Below are positions 1 to 11,616 of a DNA stretch of 64,000 nucleotides, piece by piece; the stretch's first letter is position 1, and each line of letters opens with the position of its first letter. Origin of the DNA: Calditrichia bacterium (GTDB taxonomy: Bacteria; Calditrichota; Calditrichia; RBG-13-44-9; J075). The DNA lies in the NCBI GenBank assembly GCA_050633245.1, contig JBOEGD010000018.1, positions 128,001-192,000 of the forward strand. Direction: 5' to 3'. The position numbers and the translations under genes were made by a program. Under the pieces are notes generated by a model. It was not told the DNA's origin. It worked only from the letters and a program-made list of their open reading frames with translations, and made no database searches.

Positions 1-814
1 TTATAAGTGGCAGTTCAAGGATAAGTTGGGGGTAAATATGGGCGCACGAACTGAACTGCACGGAGAGTCTGTAGTGTTTGATCCAAGAGCCAGTGCATTT
101 TATCGCAAAACCAACTGGATATACAAGCTTTCGGTTGGAAGGTATTCACAGCTGCCACAGTCGCGCTACTATGCTGCAATCAGTGATGTCAATTTGTTAA
201 AACCTGAACGCTCAACTCATCTTATGTTAGACGCGGAGTATGAAGATCCTACCCGAAAACTCTATGCCGGTATGTACTATAAACGATATAGTGATTTGGT
301 TCTAAATCAGGGCGATTCATTTTCTTCAACCGGTGATGGTGAGGCGATTGGCGCAGACCTTCGAATTAACATTAAAACTCGTTTGCTGAGCAAAAGGATT
401 CAATATTCGTTCACCACCTCTCTATTGAGTATCAAGAAACGTTTTCGCCAGTATCAAACGCGTGTTGCTGCGCCCACAGATGTGCCAATGTCGAACTATT
501 TCTTCTTCAAATATTACTTCACCGGAAATACTCATCTCGGATTTATTCACTATCAAAGTGTAGGTCGTCCCTATAGTACTTCGGATGAGCAGCTTCAAAA
601 CCGCCGACTACCGTGGAGCCATTCTACGAGCATCTATGGCCTAATAAAAAATAATGTGTCGGATTGGGATTTGTATACCTACATCAGTTTGTCCAACATC
701 TTTGGCGTAAAAAATATTTATGGTTATTCCTTTAGTGAAGATTACACATCACGTATCCCGCAGTACACGGGAGGAATTCGATCATTAACAATTGCAGTGT
801 CGCTATCTAAATAG
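1..814 (+). CDS. TonB-dependent receptor, C-terminal beta-barrel part (5' end outside window)
   Basis: Frame is open from position 2 (YKWQFKDKLGVN...). Amphipathic beta strands; LKPERSTH, GRPY and SNIFGVKNIYGY motifs typical of TBDR C-termini. Confidence 0.75.
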   Translation, partial: YKWQFKDKLGVNMGARTELHGESVVFDPRASAFYRKTNWIYKLSVGRYSQLPQSRYYAAISDVNLLKPERSTHLMLDAEYEDPTRKLYAGMYYKRYSDLVLNQGDSFSSTGDGEAIGADLRINIKTRLLSKRIQYSFTTSLLSIKKRFRQYQTRVAAPTDVPMSNYFFFKYYFTGNTHLGFIHYQSVGRPYSTSDEQLQNRRLPWSHSTSIYGLIKNNVSDWDLYTYISLSNIFGVKNIYGYSFSEDYTSRIPQYTGGIRSLTIAVSLSK

Positions 815-841
815 CGATAGAGATAATTTGGAGGAAATAAA

Positions 842-1567
842 ATGCGACGGACAATTATTATTCTGATTCTTTTTACGTGTTTCGGAACGGGTATTGGCAA
901 TGAACAAAAGGCAATTACTGTCTGTGTCTGGCAAAGTACGCTTTGGGATGAAGCAGATACGATGCTTCGGACACGCAGTGAAATCTTATTAAAAATGCGT
1001 AGTGATAGCGGAAACAGTTCTCTAACTGTTGAACTGGCAATGCTCGACTATAAACTTGCCAGCCTTTATCTACCATCCGACCCTAAAAAAGCACTGCATT
1101 TTTTGAACGATGGACTTGAACAGTTGATTACGCTTGAAAGTCCGTCGTCAGACTCTGAGAAACTTTTGAAGCTTGGCCTTCTCTATGGATTATGGGCCAA
1201 TAAAATACCTCTCGATCAGGCCAACTTTGCCATCATTCTCTCTGAGATGAGCACGATTGCATATGAGAGCAAAAAGATCAGCAAGAAAGATCCTTTCATG
1301 TCCCTTCAGAAAGGGAAATCGTATTTCTGGTGGAGACCACAAGATGGCGTTCTTGCACTTACCAAGGCGTTGAATAATCTGACACTTTTGGAAGAGAATG
1401 CAACATTGAGACAATTTGTTGAAGAAGAAAGCCTTGTCTGGTTAATTCGATGTTACAACAAGCTGGGTGATTCCATAAAAGCAGAAGAAGCTTATCAACG
1501 ACTACTAACCCTGAACAGCCGGTATTCCGAAAAGAAGGAGGGAGTATTTGAAATCGCCAGTCGTTGA
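842..1567 (+). CDS. Exported alpha-helical (TPR-like) hypothetical protein
   Basis: GGAGG RBS; signal peptide MRRTIIILILFTCFG; TPR-like C-terminus (WLIRCYNKLGDSIKAEEAYQRLLTLN). Confidence 0.6.
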   Translation: MRRTIIILILFTCFGTGIGNEQKAITVCVWQSTLWDEADTMLRTRSEILLKMRSDSGNSSLTVELAMLDYKLASLYLPSDPKKALHFLNDGLEQLITLESPSSDSEKLLKLGLLYGLWANKIPLDQANFAIILSEMSTIAYESKKISKKDPFMSLQKGKSYFWWRPQDGVLALTKALNNLTLLEENATLRQFVEEESLVWLIRCYNKLGDSIKAEEAYQRLLTLNSRYSEKKEGVFEIASR

Positions 1568-2672
1568 AGCCTGCGAACCACCTGAACAGATACGTTTACC
1601 TCGTGGTAAATATAAGCTGTCCCGTTTTACTTTATTTCGTCCTGAAGCAGATGGCTTTATCATAGAGAGCCCTTTTTCTGCCGAACAGGTTCGATTAAGT
1701 GGCTCAACGATCTTCCAGATACTACAAGTCTTTCTGGATGGAGTTGAAATAGAAACAATGTTAAGCGGGGTTGGAGAAAAAGCGAGACCGCTGGTTGAGC
1801 GAATAATCGAGAAGTGTCTCTCCTGTGGCTTTCTCATTCCTGTTTCAGATGATGGCATTTCAGAAGATGAAACAGGCGACCTGAAAACCTGGGAATTCCA
1901 CGACCTGTATTTTCATTCTCGGAGCCGAATCGGCCGTCATCAAAACGCCGTCGGTGGAACCTTCCGATACGCAGAGGAAATGAATATGCCCGGGCTTCTT
2001 CGTCAGCCGCCGGTAGGAAAACCCATCGAACTCTTTCAACCAGATATGGCTGCTCTGCAGCAGAGTGATGTATCGCTAACTCAGGCCTTGGAAAGACGAA
2101 GGACAATTAGAAATGCAAACGCCGGTTCAGTAAGCTCTGAAGAGCTCGGAGAGTTCTTATACCGTACAAGTCGAATTACATCTGTCGAGAACTATAATAA
2201 TGGATTCTCCTCCGGACTACGAGTTTATCCGGGCGGTGGTGGAATGTACCCGTTGGAAGTATATCCACTTATTTCCTCATGTAATGGCTTGAAGAATGGA
2301 CTGTATTATTATCATCCGCTAAATCATAACTTAACAACCATACCTGCCTCCGAAAACTGCTTGGAAAATCTGTTGCGCGATGCCAGGTCTGCTGGTGGCC
2401 TGGAGTATAACCCAGCCGTGCTCTTCTTAATAACGGCGCGCTTTTCCCGAACGGCTTGGAAGTATCAATCGATTGCCTATTCACTGATATTAAAAGAAGT
2501 GGGATGTTTGTTCCAAACCTTCTACCTGGTTGCTACTGCGATGAACCTGGCACCTTGCGCACTTGGAAGCGGAAATTCAGATTCTACCAGCGAGGCTATT
2601 AATCGTAGCTATTATTTGGAGACAAGTGTGGGAGAGTTTATGCTCGGGCCGGGGGCGTGCAATGCAGACTAA
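1548..2672 (+). CDS. SagB/ThcOx-family FMN azoline dehydrogenase 1 with N-terminal extension
   Basis: WEFHDLYFHSRSR, RRTIR, YPGGGGMYPLEVY, GLYYYHP, catalytic KY (AWKYQ), EVGCLFQTFYL; AGGAGG RBS; overlaps the upstream stop. Confidence 0.88.
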   Translation: MKSPVVEACEPPEQIRLPRGKYKLSRFTLFRPEADGFIIESPFSAEQVRLSGSTIFQILQVFLDGVEIETMLSGVGEKARPLVERIIEKCLSCGFLIPVSDDGISEDETGDLKTWEFHDLYFHSRSRIGRHQNAVGGTFRYAEEMNMPGLLRQPPVGKPIELFQPDMAALQQSDVSLTQALERRRTIRNANAGSVSSEELGEFLYRTSRITSVENYNNGFSSGLRVYPGGGGMYPLEVYPLISSCNGLKNGLYYYHPLNHNLTTIPASENCLENLLRDARSAGGLEYNPAVLFLITARFSRTAWKYQSIAYSLILKEVGCLFQTFYLVATAMNLAPCALGSGNSDSTSEAINRSYYLETSVGEFMLGPGACNAD

Positions 2673-3612
2673 AACCAGTTTGACCGAATCAGCTGATTTC
2701 TCTCTAAAGGCACTCTTATCGACATCAGGGAAATGCCATTCGTGGCTTAACAAATCGAGTTTACAGCAGAGCCCCTGGGAAAGATTTCAACAACAGCAGG
2801 TAGATTTTTATGATCCTGCAGAATTATATCATGAAAATTCAAAGCTACGCCGCTGTTTTTCGACAAAGGACGGACAAGGTATACGCTTTTTCCTTGCCGA
2901 CCCTCAGATGATTGATGGAACCAGCCAAATTAATAAAACGTATCCCGGCTCAAATAAAATTACTCTTCCCGGAGTGCGTCTAAAGCGAAAGTCTTCAATT
3001 GATGAAACCATTCGCTCTCGCCGTAGTTGTCGGAGCTTTAATGGCGAAGCTGCTTCGCTAAAGGAATTGAGTAACATATTACATTTATCGAATGGTGTCA
3101 CCGGCCAATCAAAATCTACAATTGAAGGACAGAAAGAGATTGTCCAGCACTATCGGGCGGCACCAAGCGCCGGTAGCCTATATTCTACTGAAATGTATGT
3201 TGCTGTCTTTTCTGTCGAGACGCTTACTCCGGGGATTTACCACTATAATGTTTTGGGACATCAACTCGAAGAGTTGGATTTGTCGCAACATTTTACAGCA
3301 GCCTTTCCAGATTGCTTTCCAATTCACCCGGATACTTTCCAGGTCGATAAGTGTGCTTTTTTGCTCATTCTGTCTTCTGTCTTTCAGCGCAGCACAGCTA
3401 AATACGGCAGTCGCGGTTATCGCCTGGCACTGCAAGAGTCGGGACATATTATGCAGAATGCCTTGCTTATTGCCACTGCCCAGAACATAGGAACCTTACC
3501 CGTAGCCGGTTACTATGATGACGAATTGAATTCCTGGCTAAAGCTCGATGGCGTTACGGAGTCGGTTGTTTACGTGGCCGGTTTTGGGAGTGCGGAGTCT
3601 TTTTGTGGCTAG
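2662..3612 (+). CDS. SagB/ThcOx-family FMN azoline dehydrogenase 2
   Basis: RRSCR, APSAGSLY, GIYHYN, KYGSRGYR, ESGHIMQN, GYYDD. Start placed at ATG 2662, which overlaps the upstream gene. Confidence 0.88.
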   Translation: MQTKTSLTESADFSLKALLSTSGKCHSWLNKSSLQQSPWERFQQQQVDFYDPAELYHENSKLRRCFSTKDGQGIRFFLADPQMIDGTSQINKTYPGSNKITLPGVRLKRKSSIDETIRSRRSCRSFNGEAASLKELSNILHLSNGVTGQSKSTIEGQKEIVQHYRAAPSAGSLYSTEMYVAVFSVETLTPGIYHYNVLGHQLEELDLSQHFTAAFPDCFPIHPDTFQVDKCAFLLILSSVFQRSTAKYGSRGYRLALQESGHIMQNALLIATAQNIGTLPVAGYYDDELNSWLKLDGVTESVVYVAGFGSAESFCG

Positions 3613-3653
3613 AAGCTGTTTCCCTTAGTATTTCAACTAATGACGGAGAATCA

Positions 3654-4868
3654 ATGATTTCGCTTAGTGATCTCGACTTAGAAGAGCGGTCATCTATTTA
3701 CCGCTTAAAAATTCCTTATCGTACTGCTCATATTAATGCGAATCAGGTGGTTATTTGGGCAGGTCTGTGGAGTGGCCCGGGTTTTGTACTGCGAGATAAA
3801 AAAGAACAAAATCTGATATCTGATTTGTTATCCACATTGGATGGTCTAAGAACGATTGAAGAGGTTGTGTTGGCTCAGAACAAGGAGGTTCAGTCTAAGG
3901 CATTACAATTTCTTATTCTTCTTATCCAGCGCTCAATTTTGGAAAAGATACCGACCAAACCGGCAAATATGGACATATCTCATGCGGAGTTCGAGCAATT
4001 CGGAAATTCATTTCGTTCCTTGTCTGTCCTAACCAGTCAGTCTACAGAGTCCGTCTCTGGTCGATTGAGAAATAGCAATGTACTTTTCATTGGCGCAGAC
4101 TCTCTTGCAATGCGTGCAGCATTACAGTTGGGAAATAGCGGTATTGCGAGTCTTTCGATTCTTGACTACCATGAGATAAACAAATCCGATCTATCAAGCT
4201 CCATTCTTTTCGAAAAGAGTATGATGGGAAAAAACCGCGCAGATGTATTAGCCCAAGTGCTTAATGAACATCATCTGGGAACTAAAGCAGTGTCTTCAAG
4301 TCGCACAGAATGGTTTTCTCATAAGGATATTGAACAGGCAATGAAGAATTGCACACTCGCCATTGTAGCATCTAACAGCCCGGATTTGCTTCTCTTACAG
4401 AGAGTAAATGATGTGGCTTTAAAGCTAAAAAAGCCCTGGCTTGCTGCTTCTTTAGATGGTTTGGAAGGAGTTGTTGGCCCAGCATTTTTTCCTTACGAAT
4501 CCTGCTGTTTTACATGTTATCAGATGCGATTGGAAAGTAACATGAATAATTTTGCGGACTACGTTCAGTATCGATCCGCCTCCGAGCGACAGCCTCTGGC
4601 AAGCCGCAATACAAATACGCTCTCACTAGCCGGGACAATCGACATTCTCGCAGGGCATGTCTCTTTGGAAGTCCTTCGCTGGTTATCTATTGGCACGAGC
4701 CGTCTGGCGGGAAGAATACTTCGCCAGGATTTTCGATCCGGGGAAATTGAAACGAACGATGTTTTGAAGCTACCTCGCTGCCCCTCCTGTAGCTTAGTTG
4801 CTGAGGAGCGTCCAAATGAACAAATTTATCATACCTATGAACATCTTATTAAGGGGCTGAATATATAG
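3654..4868 (+). CDS. TOMM cyclodehydratase C subunit (RRE plus ThiF/E1-like leader-binding protein)
   Basis: N-terminal LDGLRTIEEV winged-helix-like segment; ThiF-like core; VGP...CCFTCY and PRCPSC zinc motifs; GGAG RBS before ATG 3654. Confidence 0.85.
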   Translation: MISLSDLDLEERSSIYRLKIPYRTAHINANQVVIWAGLWSGPGFVLRDKKEQNLISDLLSTLDGLRTIEEVVLAQNKEVQSKALQFLILLIQRSILEKIPTKPANMDISHAEFEQFGNSFRSLSVLTSQSTESVSGRLRNSNVLFIGADSLAMRAALQLGNSGIASLSILDYHEINKSDLSSSILFEKSMMGKNRADVLAQVLNEHHLGTKAVSSSRTEWFSHKDIEQAMKNCTLAIVASNSPDLLLLQRVNDVALKLKKPWLAASLDGLEGVVGPAFFPYESCCFTCYQMRLESNMNNFADYVQYRSASERQPLASRNTNTLSLAGTIDILAGHVSLEVLRWLSIGTSRLAGRILRQDFRSGEIETNDVLKLPRCPSCSLVAEERPNEQIYHTYEHLIKGLNI

Positions 4869-6218
4869 ATGGAAACCGATTTATTGATTAATGAGTTCTT
4901 TCCACTCAAAAATTTATTACCTCCAGAGAATTTACGTCCTTTCATTGGCAGTCGAGCCGGACTGGTTAAACAGATTATACAAAATGGAATTGAACCCGAT
5001 GAGGCGCATCTTTTTCATTTGTCAGTAGTTACATCAAACGCGTCGATTCTTCTACAGCAGCCATCACTCGATATTCGTGCCGCCGGAAGCGGCTCGACCT
5101 ATCGTGAAGCTTTTGGTTGTGCAGTAGGGGAAGTCGTTGAACGATCGGCTCTCGCCTCATATGATAAGAAAGCGATAGTCAGAGGCTCTTATCGCGAGCT
5201 TAGCCAAAGAGGGGTTGAGGTTCTGAGTCCAGAGCAACTGGATTTGTTTTCCAAAGAGCAATATACCAATTCAGATTTCTTGTTCGAGCCATTTACCGAT
5301 ACAGCTGAGCTCGGCTGGACAGAAGGAGTTAACTTGCTTACCGGCAAACCTGTATTGGTTCCCGCCCAAGCCGTTTTGATGAGCTATAAACCGTTCCCCG
5401 GAGAGGCATTCATTACATACTCCACAACATCTGGCTGTGCTTGTGCAACCAGTATGGAATCTGCGATTATTAAGTGTGTTTATGAGCAGGTTGAAAGAGA
5501 CGCCGTTATGTTAACCTGGCTGACGAAAACTAGTCCACCAGGTGTAGATGCTGAGAAAATTGTAAGCGCGGCTCTTTTGAAGAAGCTGAATATGCAGAAC
5601 AATTCAGCCACTGATGTGTATGATCTGCGCTATTTGTCCTATGGAATTGATATCCCGGTATTTCTTGGAATCTTACAAAGGAAGATTGCAGGGAAAAAAC
5701 GATTGCTGATTGGAGCAGCGGCAAATCTCTGTGCTCAGGCTGCTTCCGAAAAAGCATTACTTGAAACGGCCCAATCAATCCCTTTTTTAAAGCTGATTTT
5801 AGCGAGTAATCCCAACCCGGATTTTGCCGGTATTTCGTTCAACGATTTCGAAAAGAATTTACGTTATTATGCAGACGAGAGAAATCAACATCATTTAACG
5901 TTTCTTCAAGAAAATAACGACGTCTTTGCAACGGAGAAACTGCCTGACCACAAAAGCAGAACGACAGAGGAAAACCTGACGTTTATTCTGAAAACTTTGA
6001 AAAGGAATAATCTTACTCCAATCGCCATCGATCACGGTAATGCTGAATATAGAGATCTTGGCTTTCATGTACTTCGCGTCTTTATCCCCGAATTACTACA
6101 GCTTTATACACCAAACGCTCCATTCCTTGGAAATCGAAGAATGCACAGCGTTCTTGGAAAGCTTGGCAAACAAGAAACAGTAAATGATCTCAACCTTCTC
6201 CCACACCCAATGCCCTGA
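4869..6218 (+). CDS. YcaO cyclodehydratase (azoline-forming, D protein)
   Basis: ATP-binding motifs GEVVER, STTSGCA and YEQVERDA; C-terminal PHPMP (PxP tail of azoline-forming YcaOs). Confidence 0.93.
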   Translation: METDLLINEFFPLKNLLPPENLRPFIGSRAGLVKQIIQNGIEPDEAHLFHLSVVTSNASILLQQPSLDIRAAGSGSTYREAFGCAVGEVVERSALASYDKKAIVRGSYRELSQRGVEVLSPEQLDLFSKEQYTNSDFLFEPFTDTAELGWTEGVNLLTGKPVLVPAQAVLMSYKPFPGEAFITYSTTSGCACATSMESAIIKCVYEQVERDAVMLTWLTKTSPPGVDAEKIVSAALLKKLNMQNNSATDVYDLRYLSYGIDIPVFLGILQRKIAGKKRLLIGAAANLCAQAASEKALLETAQSIPFLKLILASNPNPDFAGISFNDFEKNLRYYADERNQHHLTFLQENNDVFATEKLPDHKSRTTEENLTFILKTLKRNNLTPIAIDHGNAEYRDLGFHVLRVFIPELLQLYTPNAPFLGNRRMHSVLGKLGKQETVNDLNLLPHPMP

Positions 6219-6426: not shown

Positions 6427-6792
6427 GAATATATGAGCTTTTGATCCTCCTCCCAGCCTTCTCGAATTGCTGCGTGTCATTTGAGAAGTGAGGATCCTGG
6501 CTATTGTCTTGTAACTTTCTAAAATTATTTTTGTATTTATCCAATTAGATGTATGATCATCTAATGCTAGATTGGAAGAAAATGCGCTGCTTGTCTCGTC
6601 TCTTCATTTATGAGAAGCCGGATTATCCCGCTTTCCCTATTGGAAAAGGTAAAAATCTAATGACTGAGTCATCCGGACTCAAAAAAAAGACCCGTTTATC
6701 GGTTCAAGGCTTTTGGCGTCATCTTCTAAGCTCTACTCCATCTCTCTCTATTTTAGCCGCTTATCTCTCCGACTGTGTTGGTGTAGTGTTAA

Positions 6793-7587
6793 ATGATTTT
6801 TCCTTTCTTGAATTTGCTGAACTCTGTTAAAAGCCGTGTTTCCGATATGAAGCTGCTTCAAAAACGTGTTTTAAAACAGGACGATAAAATGAAAGTTGTT
6901 AGTGACCCAATTAAGACGGATTTACTCCTTGAAGATGTCGAGAACATTAGAGGAGAAGAACGAAAAAGACTTGCAGTAGAAATTCATGATGTATTTGGGC
7001 AGTTATTAGGAAGTGCACATGTAAATGCTCTGCTTCTGAAGCAGCATGTTGAACGCCAGGATTATAACGCAGTTCTTCGAAAGGTCGACCAGGTAATTTC
7101 TCTTGTTGAAAAGTCTCTGCATAGAGTGAAAGATACGGCAGTTCTACTACATACTGAGTCGGTTAAGGGAGATAATATTTTAGAGATTTTCGAACGACAC
7201 TGTCTGGAATTTACTGAAGAGAGTGGTGTTAACTGTAAAGTGGAGTGTCGGTTAGATCAGAAAGAGATGGGAACAGACTTGGGGACGACTCTTTTTTGCA
7301 TCTTACTGGAAGGGTTGCGAAACGTCTCAAAACATGCAAACGCCTCTGCTGTAAACGTTACGCTGAGTGGAAACATTGGAGAGTCTATCATCCTCGAAAT
7401 TAGAGATAATGGAGATGGTATCTCCTCACAACAAACTAAAAATCCGTTTTCACTGGGAATTTGGGGAATGAAATACCGTGCTAATCGTTTAGGTGGAAGC
7501 TTTAGTATTTCTTCCGGACAACCAATGGGGACTAATTTACGTGTCGCCTTACCATGGACAATCAAAAGAGTTAATGGGTTCGAATGA
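6793..7587 (+). CDS. HisKA_3 (NarX/UhpB-type) histidine kinase without a sensor domain
   Basis: EERKRLAVEIHDVFGQ H-box, EGLRNVSKHA N-box, DNGDG, SLGIWGM. In-frame TAA immediately upstream; true start may be 6847 or 6889. Confidence 0.85.
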   Translation: MIFPFLNLLNSVKSRVSDMKLLQKRVLKQDDKMKVVSDPIKTDLLLEDVENIRGEERKRLAVEIHDVFGQLLGSAHVNALLLKQHVERQDYNAVLRKVDQVISLVEKSLHRVKDTAVLLHTESVKGDNILEIFERHCLEFTEESGVNCKVECRLDQKEMGTDLGTTLFCILLEGLRNVSKHANASAVNVTLSGNIGESIILEIRDNGDGISSQQTKNPFSLGIWGMKYRANRLGGSFSISSGQPMGTNLRVALPWTIKRVNGFE

Positions 7588-8216
7588 TAAACATTTTATT
7601 AGTAGATGATCATCCTGCCTTCAGGTATGGTGTAAAAGAAATTTTACAAGGTTTCTCGCAGAAAGTAGAAGTTGATGAAGCTGGGAACGCAAAGGCTGCA
7701 TTAAACTGTGCCTTGAAAAAGGAATATCAAATTGCGTTCCTGGATATCAGCATGCCGGGACGTAGCGGGTTGGACATACTGCAAGATCTTAAGCAATCGA
7801 CTCCTCAAATAAAAGTTATCGTTCACAGCATGCATGCCGAGGAACAGTATGCTCTAAGAGCTCTTAAAGAAGGGGCTTCCGGATATTTGCCAAAATCATC
7901 CAGGTTAGAGCTTTACCATGAAGTGTTGCAAAATGTGCTTGATGGTAAAACATATTTTAGCGCGGCCGTTGTGAATGAATTGTTAACCATGTTAAATCAA
8001 CCTGATTCCGTTGCTGCCCATCAACTGTTGACAACCCGCCAATACACGATAATGATGTTGATTGTACAAGGTAAAAAATTAATTGAAATCGCGGAAGAAC
8101 TGTCCATTAGCTTAAGTGCGGTGAGCAATGCGCGCTCGAAAATTCTGAAAACGATGAATCTATCGGGCAATTCTGAGTTAATTCGCTACGCTGTTAAAAA
8201 CAATCTTATTGAATAA
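7584..8216 (+). CDS. NarL/UvrY-family response regulator (REC plus LuxR HTH)
   Basis: LLVDDHP, LDISMPG, GYLPK; C-terminal LuxR HTH; ATGA overlap with the kinase. Confidence 0.93.
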   Translation: MINILLVDDHPAFRYGVKEILQGFSQKVEVDEAGNAKAALNCALKKEYQIAFLDISMPGRSGLDILQDLKQSTPQIKVIVHSMHAEEQYALRALKEGASGYLPKSSRLELYHEVLQNVLDGKTYFSAAVVNELLTMLNQPDSVAAHQLLTTRQYTIMMLIVQGKKLIEIAEELSISLSAVSNARSKILKTMNLSGNSELIRYAVKNNLIE

Positions 8217-9275: not shown

Positions 9276-9932
9276 TCACCGAAAGAATATCTCCCCAAAA
9301 AATTCCGGACGATGAAAGTCTGGTTTCGGATGATCAACAGGTGCCCATGTAAGCCAGTGAGGGTGACTGGATTTATCCGCACACTTGTAGAAGTTAGCGC
9401 GCCAAACGGTGTCTGGAGCAGGACGCTCCACCGAGGCATAGTGCTCAAGAATCGTGAATGGTAAACGGTATTCCACTCCCCAGGTAATGTCGGTTTTTAT
9501 CTCCTTATTAATACTCCCTTTAAGCGTATGCGCAATGTCTACCTTATTGCGTTCATCCGTGCGAAGAACTACACCCTCTCGCGGTGCCTTTTGCGCATGA
9601 AAAAGCATCTTGCCGCAACAGTTCATCTCAAGATTAAAATACCGGGTTGTTTGTTGCCGGCTTGGCGAGAAGAAAAATTCAACGCAACTGTCTTCATATA
9701 CCGGATCTTCATGCGCAGTTGCCATAGCTCTGACGTATTGGTCTTCAACCCGAAAGATGACGTAAAGCGCTTCACTACAGTAAGCAACTTTAAACTGGAC
9801 ATCGGGGAAATGGTTCGGATGTTCTCCCATATGGTGTGTTAGCGTTTCCGCCCGAATGCTTTTCCAGTTGTCATGCTCCCAATTTGCACTTACCTGATGA
9901 TGTGATGGCATTCTGCCAGCTATACAGCACAT
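9276..9932 (-). CDS. Carbohydrate-binding family 9-like protein
   Basis: VYEDSCVEFF, YFNLEMNC, WRANFYKCADK, PDFHRPEFFG motifs; GAGGA RBS. Confidence 0.85.
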   Translation of the reverse strand: MCCIAGRMPSHHQVSANWEHDNWKSIRAETLTHHMGEHPNHFPDVQFKVAYCSEALYVIFRVEDQYVRAMATAHEDPVYEDSCVEFFFSPSRQQTTRYFNLEMNCCGKMLFHAQKAPREGVVLRTDERNKVDIAHTLKGSINKEIKTDITWGVEYRLPFTILEHYASVERPAPDTVWRANFYKCADKSSHPHWLTWAPVDHPKPDFHRPEFFGEIFFR

Positions 9933-10093
9933 ATAAACTTCCTCTTTCTATCAATAGAGACGATTGGGATGAAATAATACAGAATATCAACCCAATATTG
10001 CAAAAACATCTACAAAAAATGGGGTTTATTACCTTATTATCTTTTGCTTACGTAAGGTGCTGCACAGTTCAGTTGATCTTGCGCTCCGTATAT

Positions 10094-10121
10094 TTAAGAA
10101 CCGGTATTATACTACCGATAC
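10094..10121 (+). promoter_or_regulatory. Possible sigma28 (FliA)-type promoter
   Basis: TTAA-N16-ACCGATAC, 28 nt upstream of the peroxidase start. Confidence 0.35.
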
Positions 10122-10149
10122 TGCTAGAGTATGTTAATAGGGGAAACCA

Positions 10150-11616
10150 ATGTCAGGACTGAAACAACTTTTTGTATTTACGACTATTCTGTTTTTGAGT
10201 GGAGAGACGTTACTTGCACAGTCACCGGGTGTAATTGACTTAAATAGTTTACCGGATTATGCCGGGCAAACAGCACCGATCTACATTGAGAAAGATAATA
10301 CACCGCTTGGTAATGCAATCACGAATGAAGGCGCAACACTTGGTCGAGTAATTTTTTACGACAAACGGATATCTGTTAATAATACCATTGCCTGTGCGAG
10401 TTGCCATCAACAGCAATTTGCTTTTGGCGATCCGGCAAATGTGAGCACCGGAGTCAATGGTACCACCGGACGCCACTCGATGCGCCTGGTAAATGCCCGA
10501 TTTGCAGACGAAACAAGGTTTTTTTGGGATGAACGCGCAAGCTCTCTTGAAGAACAGACGACTATGCCGATTCAAGATCATGCCGAGATGGGGTTCAGCG
10601 GTTCTCAGGGAGATCCGGCATTAGATTCATTGCTTACAAAAATGTCTCAACAAAAGTACTATCGTGTGCTTTTTGCTGCGGTTTACGGAGATAGTGTCAT
10701 TACCGAAGATCGAATGCAGAGAGCCATCGCTCAATTTATTCGCAGCATTCAGTCATTCGATTCGCGCTTCGACACCGGTCGTGCCCAGGTGGCGAATGAC
10801 GGAGCGCCGTTTCCCAATTTTTCGAATCAGGAAAATCAGGGTAAAAATCTGTTTCTTATGCCACCGCAGTTTAACCAAACGGGTACACGTGTAGGTGGCG
10901 GTGTTGGCTGTGCCGGATGTCATGGCCCACCGGAGTTCGACATTAACCCTAATTCTGGTAATAATGGGGTGGTGGTCTCCATTGGTGGAGGAACTGATTT
11001 TACCAACACGCGTGCACCTTCTTTGCGTGATGTTGTCGATGGTAATGCGAATCTTAATGGATCGCTCATGCACGATGCCGGTTTTCCCAGTTTGCTTTCG
11101 GTTGTGAATCACTACAATAATATTCAACCTGCTCCGGGTATTGACCCAAGGCTGACGCCGGGTGGTAATGGACAGAATTTGGCGCTCACTCAAAATGAGA
11201 AGGACAATCTGGTCGCATTTCTCGAGACGTTAACCGGATCTGATATATATGCCAACCCAATTTGGAGCACGCCTTTCGATGGTAATGGTGATTTAACAGT
11301 TATTCCGCAGGGAACGACTGGTATCGAGCCCGGATCTGGTGAACTGATTGCCGATTTTGTCCTTCGCCAAAATTATCCAAATCCCTTTAACCCGACGACA
11401 ACGATTGGATATGTGCTGAAGCGAGAAGGCCTGGTGCAATTATCTGTGTTCGATTTGCTGGGTAGGGAAGTTGCAGTTCTGGTAAATCAAAACCAGGCGA
11501 TCGGTAGCTATAGCAGCGCGTTCGATGCTACAAAGCAACCGGCAGGAATTTATCTTTATCGGCTTAGCTTTAACGGAATTCCTGTGCAAACTAAAAAGAT
11601 GTTGCTGGCAAAATAA
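10150..11616 (+). CDS. Diheme cytochrome c peroxidase/MauG-family protein with Por/T9SS-type C-terminal tail
   Basis: Signal peptide; two CxxCH motifs (CASCH, CAGCH); FWDERA, APSLR, MHDA; C-terminal QNYPNPFNPTTTI...GIYLYRL...TKKMLL. Confidence 0.88.
   Translation: MSGLKQLFVFTTILFLSGETLLAQSPGVIDLNSLPDYAGQTAPIYIEKDNTPLGNAITNEGATLGRVIFYDKRISVNNTIACASCHQQQFAFGDPANVSTGVNGTTGRHSMRLVNARFADETRFFWDERASSLEEQTTMPIQDHAEMGFSGSQGDPALDSLLTKMSQQKYYRVLFAAVYGDSVITEDRMQRAIAQFIRSIQSFDSRFDTGRAQVANDGAPFPNFSNQENQGKNLFLMPPQFNQTGTRVGGGVGCAGCHGPPEFDINPNSGNNGVVVSIGGGTDFTNTRAPSLRDVVDGNANLNGSLMHDAGFPSLLSVVNHYNNIQPAPGIDPRLTPGGNGQNLALTQNEKDNLVAFLETLTGSDIYANPIWSTPFDGNGDLTVIPQGTTGIEPGSGELIADFVLRQNYPNPFNPTTTIGYVLKREGLVQLSVFDLLGREVAVLVNQNQAIGSYSSAFDATKQPAGIYLYRLSFNGIPVQTKKMLLAK

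Follow-up and report, generated by a model that had tools for sequence, protein, structure and literature searches.

A probable thiopeptide-type operon with an embedded TonB-dependent-receptor-like gene in a Calditrichia bacterium

The first 6.2 kb of the window, by which we mean the whole 64,000-nt stretch of Calditrichia bacterium DNA analysed here (C18:128001-192000, on contig JBOEGD010000018.1 of a 6.35-Mb, 59-contig genome), form the 3' half of a 14.3-kb operon for a peptide synthesized on the ribosome and modified after translation (RiPP) that is probably of thiopeptide type, most likely making a pyridine-ringed thiopeptide from a 56-residue precursor. The contig goes on upstream, and the whole cluster, which is single-copy in the genome, comprises 11 genes on one strand over 14,302 bp (C18:119917-134218). 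An earlier, sequence-only reading of the window had filed these genes as a linear azol(in)e-containing peptide/thiazole-oxazole-modified microcin (LAP/TOMM) pathway on the strength of a trio of YcaO, E1-like partner and flavin mononucleotide (FMN) dehydrogenase. That trio is present, with the curated SagB, leader-binding and SagD models all exceeded, but the same operon also holds a pyridine-synthase homolog and a split LanB dehydratase. Because the TbtD/PbtD-like synthase, the split LanB and an ABC exporter lie upstream on the same strand, we assign the cluster to the thiopeptides and not to the LAPs, and the LAP/TOMM filing, which implies a linear product with no macrocyclase and with leader removal by a protease, was set aside.

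The six tightly packed or overlapping window genes of the sequence-only reading, in the order TonB-dependent receptor (TBDR), tetratricopeptide repeat (TPR) protein, SagB, SagB, ThiF and YcaO, are all present as + strand frames, with gaps or overlaps between −20 and +41 nt. The same reading had seen no precursor, protease or ABC exporter and had placed the precursor upstream; the former is correct within the window, but in the locus both a precursor gene and an ABC exporter precede it, and a check of the upstream contig found the precursor where it was expected. Upstream features are given here in coordinates of L002, the locus that includes the 18 kb preceding the window (L002 coordinate = window coordinate + 18000), and all cluster genes are on the + strand. 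From the precursor onward the intergenic gaps are 208, 24, 3, 24, 26 and 27 nt, followed by overlaps, and beyond the precursor, further upstream, lies an unrelated molybdopterin oxidoreductase gene. Three runs from two studies supplied short contigs, mostly 90-99% identical, that match parts all along the operon region (depth-covered bins: 23/30 in X1, 15/30 in X2 and 20/30 in X3, the rest uncovered). One of these contigs bridges the junction between the ABC exporter and the TBDR-like gene (L002 16367-16707) and another that between the TBDR-like gene and the TPR gene (L002 18782-19000), so the gene arrangement is not an assembly artefact of this genome alone.

Central to the thiopeptide assignment is a 369-aa protein (L002 10296-11405), most likely a TbtD/PbtD-like pyridine synthase, as predicted from a model of high confidence (predicted local distance difference test, pLDDT, 93.6) and its ten best PDB matches. 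Its best NCBIfam match is TbtD_PbtD_pyrid (NF045556, E 1.4e-47), aligned over positions 2-352 of 354, and by sequence it matches TbtD (3.1e-10) and PbtD (3.3e-5) in the PDB, and an exhaustive HMMER search over 1.84 billion representatives returned 292 relatives down to E 1e-3, of which 35 reached E ≤1e-30. Structurally, the model, folded on a 26-sequence alignment (A1; predicted template modelling score, pTM, 0.91), retrieved only [4+2] aza-cyclases at Foldseek ranks 1-10 against the PDB, namely PbtD, TbtD and TsrL (E ~1e-12; template modelling score, TM, 0.63-0.73 by query and 0.67-0.85 by target), whereas the LanB dehydratases MadB, MibB and NisB were weaker matches (E 8e-7 to 1e-3, TM 0.38-0.49). 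Residues H184 and Y317, invariant in 26/26 subfamily sequences, align with a His and a Tyr of TbtD/PbtD; PDB entries 8ejy and 8ejz are the F293A and Y293F variants of the PbtD cyclase, and a 3-residue numbering offset suggests that Y317 may be the counterpart of PbtD residue 293. Both the fold and the conserved residues that mark a [4+2] pyridine synthase are present.

The putative substrate is encoded by a 56-codon frame (L002 9917-10087) that begins 8,084 bases before window base 1, with an AGGAG 8 nt before its ATG, which itself stands 208 nt ahead of the first enzyme gene, and of which the genome holds one copy. Its product, MKNFKLNIDLEELNITEVELFTEEGTKGIPAFAA-SCSSGPGLHSCVREEKPAPNDE, consists of a 34-aa leader ending ..GIPAFAA and a 22-aa core that begins SCSSGPGLHSC, so that Ser1 is followed at ring distance by a second Ser-Cys (His9-Ser10-Cys11), as expected of a thiopeptide core, and then by an 11-residue tail; only two of the 22 core residues are Cys.

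Evolutionarily, this frame belongs, by sequence comparison, to a conserved precursor family with hypervariable cores. We fetched 17 related loci (L008-L024) with a narrower synthase alignment (A2), mostly from Acidobacteriota metagenome-assembled genomes (MAGs) and one from Longimicrobiaceae; they reach at most 10 kb in either direction, and some stop short at the end of a contig, so that misses there do not equal absences. When the 11 cluster proteins were searched against these loci with tblastn, homologs of the 56-aa peptide appeared in 15/17, the pyridine synthase in 17/17 (by construction; 27-34% identity), the LanB N part in 13/17, the LanB C part in 12/17, a ThcOx-type SagB in 12/17 (37-46% identity), YcaO in 10/17, the ABC exporter in 9/17 (one partial; 37-57% identity) and the C-part of the ThiF-like protein in 3/17. 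The shared leader reads ...IDL..L.V.E[IV]..L.QEG.RG.PEFAA, and the junction, [F/L/M][A/G/S/T]A followed by Ser, is kept in 44 of the 45 homologous peptides extracted (45/46 records with the window peptide), the exception being a degenerate copy in L011; another copy is truncated by the end of its locus. In the 42 distinct cores, counting that of the window, the second residue is Cys 17 times, Thr 17 times and Ser 8 times, and 41 carry an x-Ser-Cys whose Ser stands at position 9-18 (at 10 in the window core), with a tail of 0-24 residues (11 in the window) behind the motif; the second serine was picked heuristically as that of the last x-Ser-Cys. Cys precedes Ser-Cys in 27 of these 41 cores, and the remaining 14 have Asn, Ser, Pro, Ile, Ala, Thr or His there; His occurs in one, namely the window core, whose cluster is also the only one with a TBDR.

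The related loci differ from the window cluster in having one SagB, no TBDR or TPR gene that we found and, often, tandem precursor arrays. In L011 (6100-19037, on an Acidobacteriota MAG contig) at least 19 tandem precursor genes with diverse cores are interleaved with three synthase copies, and beside them the genes for SagB, the ABC exporter, the ThiF-like protein and YcaO occur as a single set; the array looks like a combinatorial thiopeptide library in one locus. Some of the related Acidobacteriota clusters have extras absent from the window cluster, among them a B12-binding radical SAM enzyme (L017 3436-5541) and MacB/FtsX permeases, the latter in 3/6 annotated loci (L010 11965-14379, L015 11110-13512 and L019 9815-11656), and some of their YcaOs are 625-805 aa long, probably through fusion to the partner.

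Dehydration would fall to a LanB split into a glutamylation part (L002 11430-13841, 803 aa; Lant_dehydr_N 6.9e-11) and an elimination part (L002 13845-14702, 285 aa; Lant_dehydr_C 1e-20), the two components needed for dehydroalanine (Dha). Scores exceed the cut-offs for PF04738 (41.5 vs 28 bits), PF14028 (75.4 vs 24.4 bits) and TIGR03891 (58.3 vs 48.45 bits). The ABC exporter that follows (L002 14727-16604, 625 aa) has no peptidase domain, and the domain annotation of the upstream genes revealed neither a leader protease nor a C39 domain on the exporter.

These data bear on an alternative in which the product is a linear peptide with azoles and dehydroalanines, such as goadsporin, and the LanB-C-like protein of 369 aa acts not as a macrocyclase but as an additional paralog for elimination or scaffolding. 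Such a product, the closest to the LAP idea of the sequence-only reading, would fit the Pfam profile of the 369-aa protein, whose only match is Lant_dehydr_C (4.4e-18), its NF045556 score of 162.6 bits against a 325-bit equivalog cut-off, and the His in place of Cys before Ser10. We nonetheless consider it very unlikely, and the least probable of the alternatives weighed here: a separate elimination protein with TIGR03891 above cut-off is already there, ten aza-cyclase chains rank first by fold with the LanB elimination domains at least six orders of magnitude worse in E-value, linear products would not require the Ser1 and distal x-Ser-Cys found in 41/42 cores, and the protease search just described came back empty.

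The azole-forming enzymes are encoded at the 3' end of the operon. The YcaO cyclodehydratase (window 4869-6218) is of SagD type (PF02624 1.7e-59; TIGR03604 256.1 vs a cut-off of 219.25 bits), matches TruD, MusD and LynD in the PDB (2e-14 to 5e-13) and ends in ...LPHPMP when its sequence is read, in keeping with the Pro-rich tail already remarked upon. Its E1/ThiF-like partner, or F/C protein (404 aa; window 3654-4868 from the probable ATG, in a frame open from 3603), matches PF00899 (4.2e-20), exceeds the leader-binding model TIGR03882 (58.4 vs 36.9 bits), falls under the cut-off of TIGR03603 (4.8e-25), and has MccB (1.3e-10), PaaA and MusD/TruD among its PDB matches. The earlier label of RiPP recognition element (RRE)/ThiF for this gene stands for its ThiF part; no RRE or PqqD-type domain was detected by Pfam in its first 139 residues, even at E 10.

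Two full dehydrogenases are encoded in the operon, as the sequence-only reading had it; TIGR03605, with its cut-off of 78.4 bits, gives them 166.5 and 134.9 bits. The first SagB (window 1548-2672, with a TTG start) is an azoline dehydrogenase of ThcOx/CyaGox type, with an RRE-like ThcOx N-domain (PF22767 5.7e-17), a nitroreductase domain (PF00881 2.4e-13) and a TIGR03605 E-value of 3.7e-49; it is close to the cyanobactin oxidase CyaGox (PDB, 5.8e-60) and keeps the W-K-Y stretch, with K305-Y306. The second (316 aa; window 2662-3612 from the probable ATG, in a frame that opens with a TTG at 2563) is a stand-alone nitroreductase fold (TIGR03605 2e-39), matches the tandem nitroreductase 3eo7 (1.7e-30) and McbC (1.3e-11) in the PDB, and has 215 homologs at E ≤1e-10, of which the best shares 42% identity with it. 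In the alignment to McbC its K247-Y248 coincides with K201-Y202, the catalytic pair of McbC, an enzyme in which each subunit of the dimer helps bind the FMN cofactors (PMC6395948). Both SagBs look catalytically competent, and they may form a heterodimer or divide the labour. The combination expected of a thiopeptide cluster, a YcaO with an E1 partner and an FMN dehydrogenase with its Lys-Tyr pair, is complete here. A separate counterpart of the second SagB was not found in the 17 related loci: in 12/12 of those with a SagB its match falls within the gene of the first type, and the six loci annotated with Pfam (53 open reading frames, ORFs) hold one ThcOx-type SagB each. That two dehydrogenases should be unusual, as had been claimed, does not hold without qualification, given the precedent of the thiopeptide berninamycin cluster, though there they accompany two YcaOs (PMC9290621). 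Some 33 kb upstream on the same contig (L027 4920-7233 = C18:84920-87233), a second YcaO (PF02624 3.7e-74) has a TfuA protein (8.9e-47) directly after it. The two form a pair of thioamidation type that lacks an evident substrate gene, and their neighbours are a sigma-54 activator/kinase-like protein, a STAS protein and a SpoIIE phosphatase.

From gene content, gene order, the domain and fold assignments and the conservation of the precursor family we infer every chemical step of the following pathway, as well as the ring size and the retention of the tail. The precursor would be bound through its leader, Cys2 and Cys11 would be cyclodehydrated to thiazolines by YcaO with its ThiF-like partner, and the thiazolines would be oxidised to thiazoles by the first SagB and perhaps also the second. 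The split LanB would convert Ser1 and Ser10, and possibly Ser3/Ser4, to dehydroalanines, upon which the TbtD/PbtD-like enzyme would join Dha1 and Dha10 in a formal [4+2] cycloaddition, giving a pyridine-bridged ring over residues 1-10 and expelling water and the leader as a carboxamide. The product would retain its 11-residue acidic tail, and the ABC exporter would carry it over the inner membrane. By calculation, the leader carboxamide (Met1 kept) weighs 3822.98 Da and the product between 2146.84 and 2186.89 Da, the values being 2186.89 Da for two thiazoles with Ser3/Ser4 left intact, then 2168.88 and 2150.87 Da (Dha3, Dha4), and 2148.85 or 2146.84 Da (oxazole variants). The lactazole leader, too, leaves as a carboxamide (PMC7210931), and elimination of the leader in the [4+2] step has been described (PMC9247985; PMC7210931). 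Since the cycloaddition expels the leader, no protease is needed in the locus, and its lack is not the anomaly that the sequence-only reading made of it.

Several observations weigh against a product of this kind. The equivalog-level NF045556 cut-off is not reached by the synthase, whose nearest homolog in the 1.84 billion representatives is just 33% identical; the LanB N part matches solved structures weakly (TbtB, 1.6e-4) and the elimination part has no PDB sequence match; two dehydrogenases serve a core with two Cys only; and scans of the cluster for promoters and terminators gave no signal above shuffles. With His9 instead of Cys before Ser10, the pyridine would be without the usual 3-thiazole, and in lactazole, changes adjoining the 4-pi Ser abolished cyclisation (PMC7210931), although 13 other family cores have no Cys at this place either. 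Lastly, the role proposed below for the TBDR-like and TPR proteins is read from the position of their genes.

Compared with known systems, the core machinery is of a known kind, and the cluster stands apart through the TBDR/TPR pair lodged within it, its additional SagB, a core with His-Ser-Cys, and its host phylum. The enzyme set of the thiomuracin and GE2270 systems (TbtA-G, PbtD) recurs here: YcaO and its E1-like partner, an azoline dehydrogenase, the split LanB, and a pyridine synthase whose fold TbtD/PbtD match best; the leader would here, too, be removed by the cyclase. The window synthase, though, is ~20% identical to TbtD/PbtD, the precursor core is Cys-poor (2/22) with an 11-residue hydrophilic tail, and the cluster sits in a diderm host together with a TBDR, a TPR protein and a second SagB. 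The spacing of Ser1 and Ser10, each then followed by Cys, is presumably that of the 26-membered thiopeptides of thiocillin/micrococcin type, from which the window core differs in having His and not Cys at residue 9, a ring interior (SSGPGLH) without further Cys, and a long, acidic tail.

Lactazole (laz) resembles the window system in its low Cys/Ser/Thr content, in C-terminal tails that are tolerated or carried and in having no known antibiotic role; lactazole-like clusters make up 251 of the 508 predicted thiopeptide biosynthetic gene clusters (BGCs; PMC7210931). Membership of that class was rejected, as its hallmark is LazF, a dehydrogenase-elimination fusion (PMC7210931), whereas here separate genes encode the 285-aa elimination protein and the dehydrogenases; laz, moreover, has a 32-membered ring and no outer-membrane genes. 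Berninamycin shares the two McbC/SagB-type dehydrogenases (berE1/berE2; PMC9290621) but is made by an actinobacterial cluster with two YcaOs (berG1/berG2) in place of one, a P450 and resistance genes. In the pyritides (MroA-D), LanB-type dehydration and a [4+2] cyclase likewise give a pyridine macrocycle, close to which azoles need be few or absent, but these clusters, as described in PMC9247985, are without azole-forming genes and their cores without Cys. The pyritide class was therefore rejected as well, the window cluster having YcaO, ThiF and SagB along with Cys2 and Cys11. Full-text literature searches yielded no account of this precursor family or of a TBDR inside a thiopeptide operon, though such clusters may have been listed before; the published matches are survey counts of 'thiopeptide' BGCs, such as those in PMC13635244.

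Between the exporter and the azole enzymes lie a full TBDR-like gene (L002 16631-18814 = C18:126631-128814), whose 3' 813 bases are window 2-814, and the gene of a TPR-like exported protein of 241 aa (window 842-1567), which bears out the view that outer-membrane and exported proteins are encoded within the operon. The TBDR-like protein (727 aa from ATG, 745 aa from an upstream TTG) carries an N-terminal CarboxypepD_reg_2 domain (E 8.8e-13). A TBDR consists of a 22-strand barrel with a plug. The window fragment of this protein matches TonB_dep_Rec_b-barrel at E 0.0022 with 18.4 bits, under the 27-bit cut-off, and Pfam gave no match to the Plug domain, a plug-like RGG...DG stretch being seen by eye. 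Structurally, its Atlas model aligned with TBDR clusters over 601-694 residues at TM 0.75-0.85 (best 0.82-0.85). The 241-aa protein has a hydrophobic, signal-like N-terminus and sub-threshold TPR_1/TPR_6 matches, and its Atlas features are 0.97 to TPR families of 230-260 aa. Its AlphaFold model is all-helical with a pLDDT of 58.9, and a Foldseek search with this low-confidence model returned nothing at E ≤1e-3, only generic TPR rows at E ≥0.014 and no SusD/RagB among the matches listed.

The genome holds one full-length paralog of the TBDR-like protein (25% identity), on contig C11, where a module (L026 1218-8605, C11:460218-467605) comprises a TBDR of 808 aa with full Plug and barrel, the paralog (735 aa), a 267-aa TPR protein, a LytS-type kinase and a LytTR regulator. 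The layout of this module, with TBDR, TPR and two-component genes, resembles the surroundings of the thiopeptide genes, while its TPR protein and the one in the operon have little sequence in common (pairwise E 0.013 and 0.15). A SusC/SusD (RagA/RagB)-type reading of the pair was considered and not supported, the model being poor, the matches generic and the two TPR proteins dissimilar; the 241-aa protein is also about half as long as SusD proteins. Complex prediction with TBDR residues 48-745 and TPR residues 21-241 scored 0.21 and 0.17 against a mark of 0.32, which is evidence in neither direction.

Downstream of YcaO, a HisKA_3 histidine kinase (window 6793-7587, + strand) and a LuxR-type response regulator (window 7584-8216, + strand), both recognised through Pfam/NCBIfam matches, possibly regulate the cluster, to which they may belong by position. 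In the kinase (264 aa) neither a sensor nor a membrane part can be recognised, and it overlaps a 93-aa frame with a faint TPR match (window 6549-7587); the whole may be a split or truncated TPR-kinase.

Functionally, the TBDR-like and TPR proteins most likely handle the peptide at the outer membrane, which is the weakest part of our reading. To our knowledge, all characterised TonB-dependent receptors import, and we accordingly favour uptake or sensing of the peptide over export; help in export, immunity or passenger status may be other roles. Thiostrepton enters Pseudomonas via pyoverdine (siderophore) receptors (PMC10128021), and among predicted clusters TBDRs are associated with lasso peptides as well (PMC7849407). 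A more specific proposal, which we consider unlikely, is that the peptide, besides or instead of being a secreted antibiotic, is taken back or sensed through this dedicated TBDR and TPR protein, feeding the two-component system, and would thus be a metallophore- or autoinducer-like thiopeptide with the pyridine-thiazole and His9 as a possible metal site and the acidic tail for solubility.

Alternatively, the TBDR and TPR genes, perhaps with the second SagB, could be passengers, a nutrient-uptake module that landed in a thiopeptide operon, which seems to us possible though somewhat doubtful. A paralogous TBDR and TPR pair with a two-component system and no RiPP genes beside it does exist elsewhere in the genome (L026), tblastn on the 17 related loci gave no homolog of either protein, nor did one occur among the 53 annotated ORFs of six of these loci, and among the characterised clusters of MIBiG, TBDRs are almost exclusive to siderophore pathways and do not mark other classes (PMC7849407). 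Against this, the exporter genes lie on one side of them and those of the azole enzymes on the other, with gaps of 26-27 nt and a 20-nt overlap, a spacing that implies co-transcription. For the TPR protein, moreover, just one close relative was found, at 60% identity and on an ENA contig of 9,830 nt, and a relative of the second SagB (35% identity) is reported on an ENA contig of equal length, possibly the same one; this hints at a sister cluster and suggests that the linkage may outlast considerable divergence. Within the phylum the TPR protein was found in 1/86 genomes, its own, and a metagenome contig scan with its alignment found 0 relatives among 189 pattern matches.

The cluster was seldom met in the genomes searched. 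Among the 41 nearest genomes the synthase was found in 1/41, its own, and the cluster was not found in the 40 close relatives searched; across the phylum a synthase profile recovered 2/86 genomes, the second a partial match to a different protein, LanB-C-like and beside a LanM-like gene. A single-sequence synthase search of genome contigs found 0 relatives, and a search for homologous proteins only the synthase itself. A profile search of 151 genomes, with at most 13 candidates scored per genome, in the phylum of the Acidobacteriaceae genome that carries L012 (G086) returned only that centre genome at E ≤1e-30, and the synthase family is sparse in that phylum too. In a genome of the host's own family (G005), a 363-aa thiopep_ocin/LanB-C-like protein (TIGR03891 6.2e-30) adjoins a LanM-like fragment (5.6e-57) in what is a different RiPP locus (L006 1411-3507). 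In composition, the cluster has a GC content of 43.2% against 45.3% for the genome (6.7th percentile of 1,165 windows compared) and an ordinary tetranucleotide distance, with 18% of windows more distant; recent horizontal transfer was considered, and composition gave no clear signal of it.

Sparse occurrence could also reflect a silent or decaying acquisition whose product is no longer made. The 1/41 and 2/86 counts, the latter with its partial and different second member, the single precursor copy and the TTG start of the first SagB would all suit such decay, which is nevertheless quite improbable in our estimation, because each of the 11 frames is open and reaches the full length of its family, the catalytic motifs are kept, and 90-99% identical pieces recur in runs from two studies. 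The near-genome GC and ordinary tetranucleotide use further argue for long residence under selection.

As to the host, the sequence-only reading had proposed a probable basal member of the Fibrobacteres-Chlorobi-Bacteroidetes (FCB) group, which is compatible with a one-class phylum of 86 species genomes, with a nearby type IX secretion system (T9SS) sorting domain and with the Calditrichota label of a member of a protein cluster related to the pyridine synthase. In the window at 9276-11616, a CBM9 protein (1.1e-43) is encoded on the - strand, and an MbnH/MauG-like di-haem peroxidase with a T9SS C-terminal sorting domain on the + strand; the sorting domain indicates an FCB-type secretion system in the organism.

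Characterised thiopeptides come mainly from Gram-positive bacteria. A diderm producer raises the question of how a thiopeptide crosses the outer membrane and what such a peptide does there, and this locus, in which a TBDR, a TPR protein and an extra dehydrogenase stand inside an otherwise canonical thiopeptide operon of a small FCB-like phylum, gives that question a concrete, testable handle. If the TBDR is a mere passenger, the locus would be one more predicted thiopeptide cluster. The precursor family, with its minimal Ser1...x-Ser-Cys requirement, hypervariable cores and tandem arrays in Acidobacteriota, could interest macrocycle engineers. If, on the other hand, the peptide is taken up or sensed in the metallophore- or autoinducer-like manner outlined above, it would be the first thiopeptide whose operon also encodes a cognate receptor in the outer membrane and would offer a natural rationale for the entry of thiopeptides via the siderophore receptors of Pseudomonas (PMC10128021).

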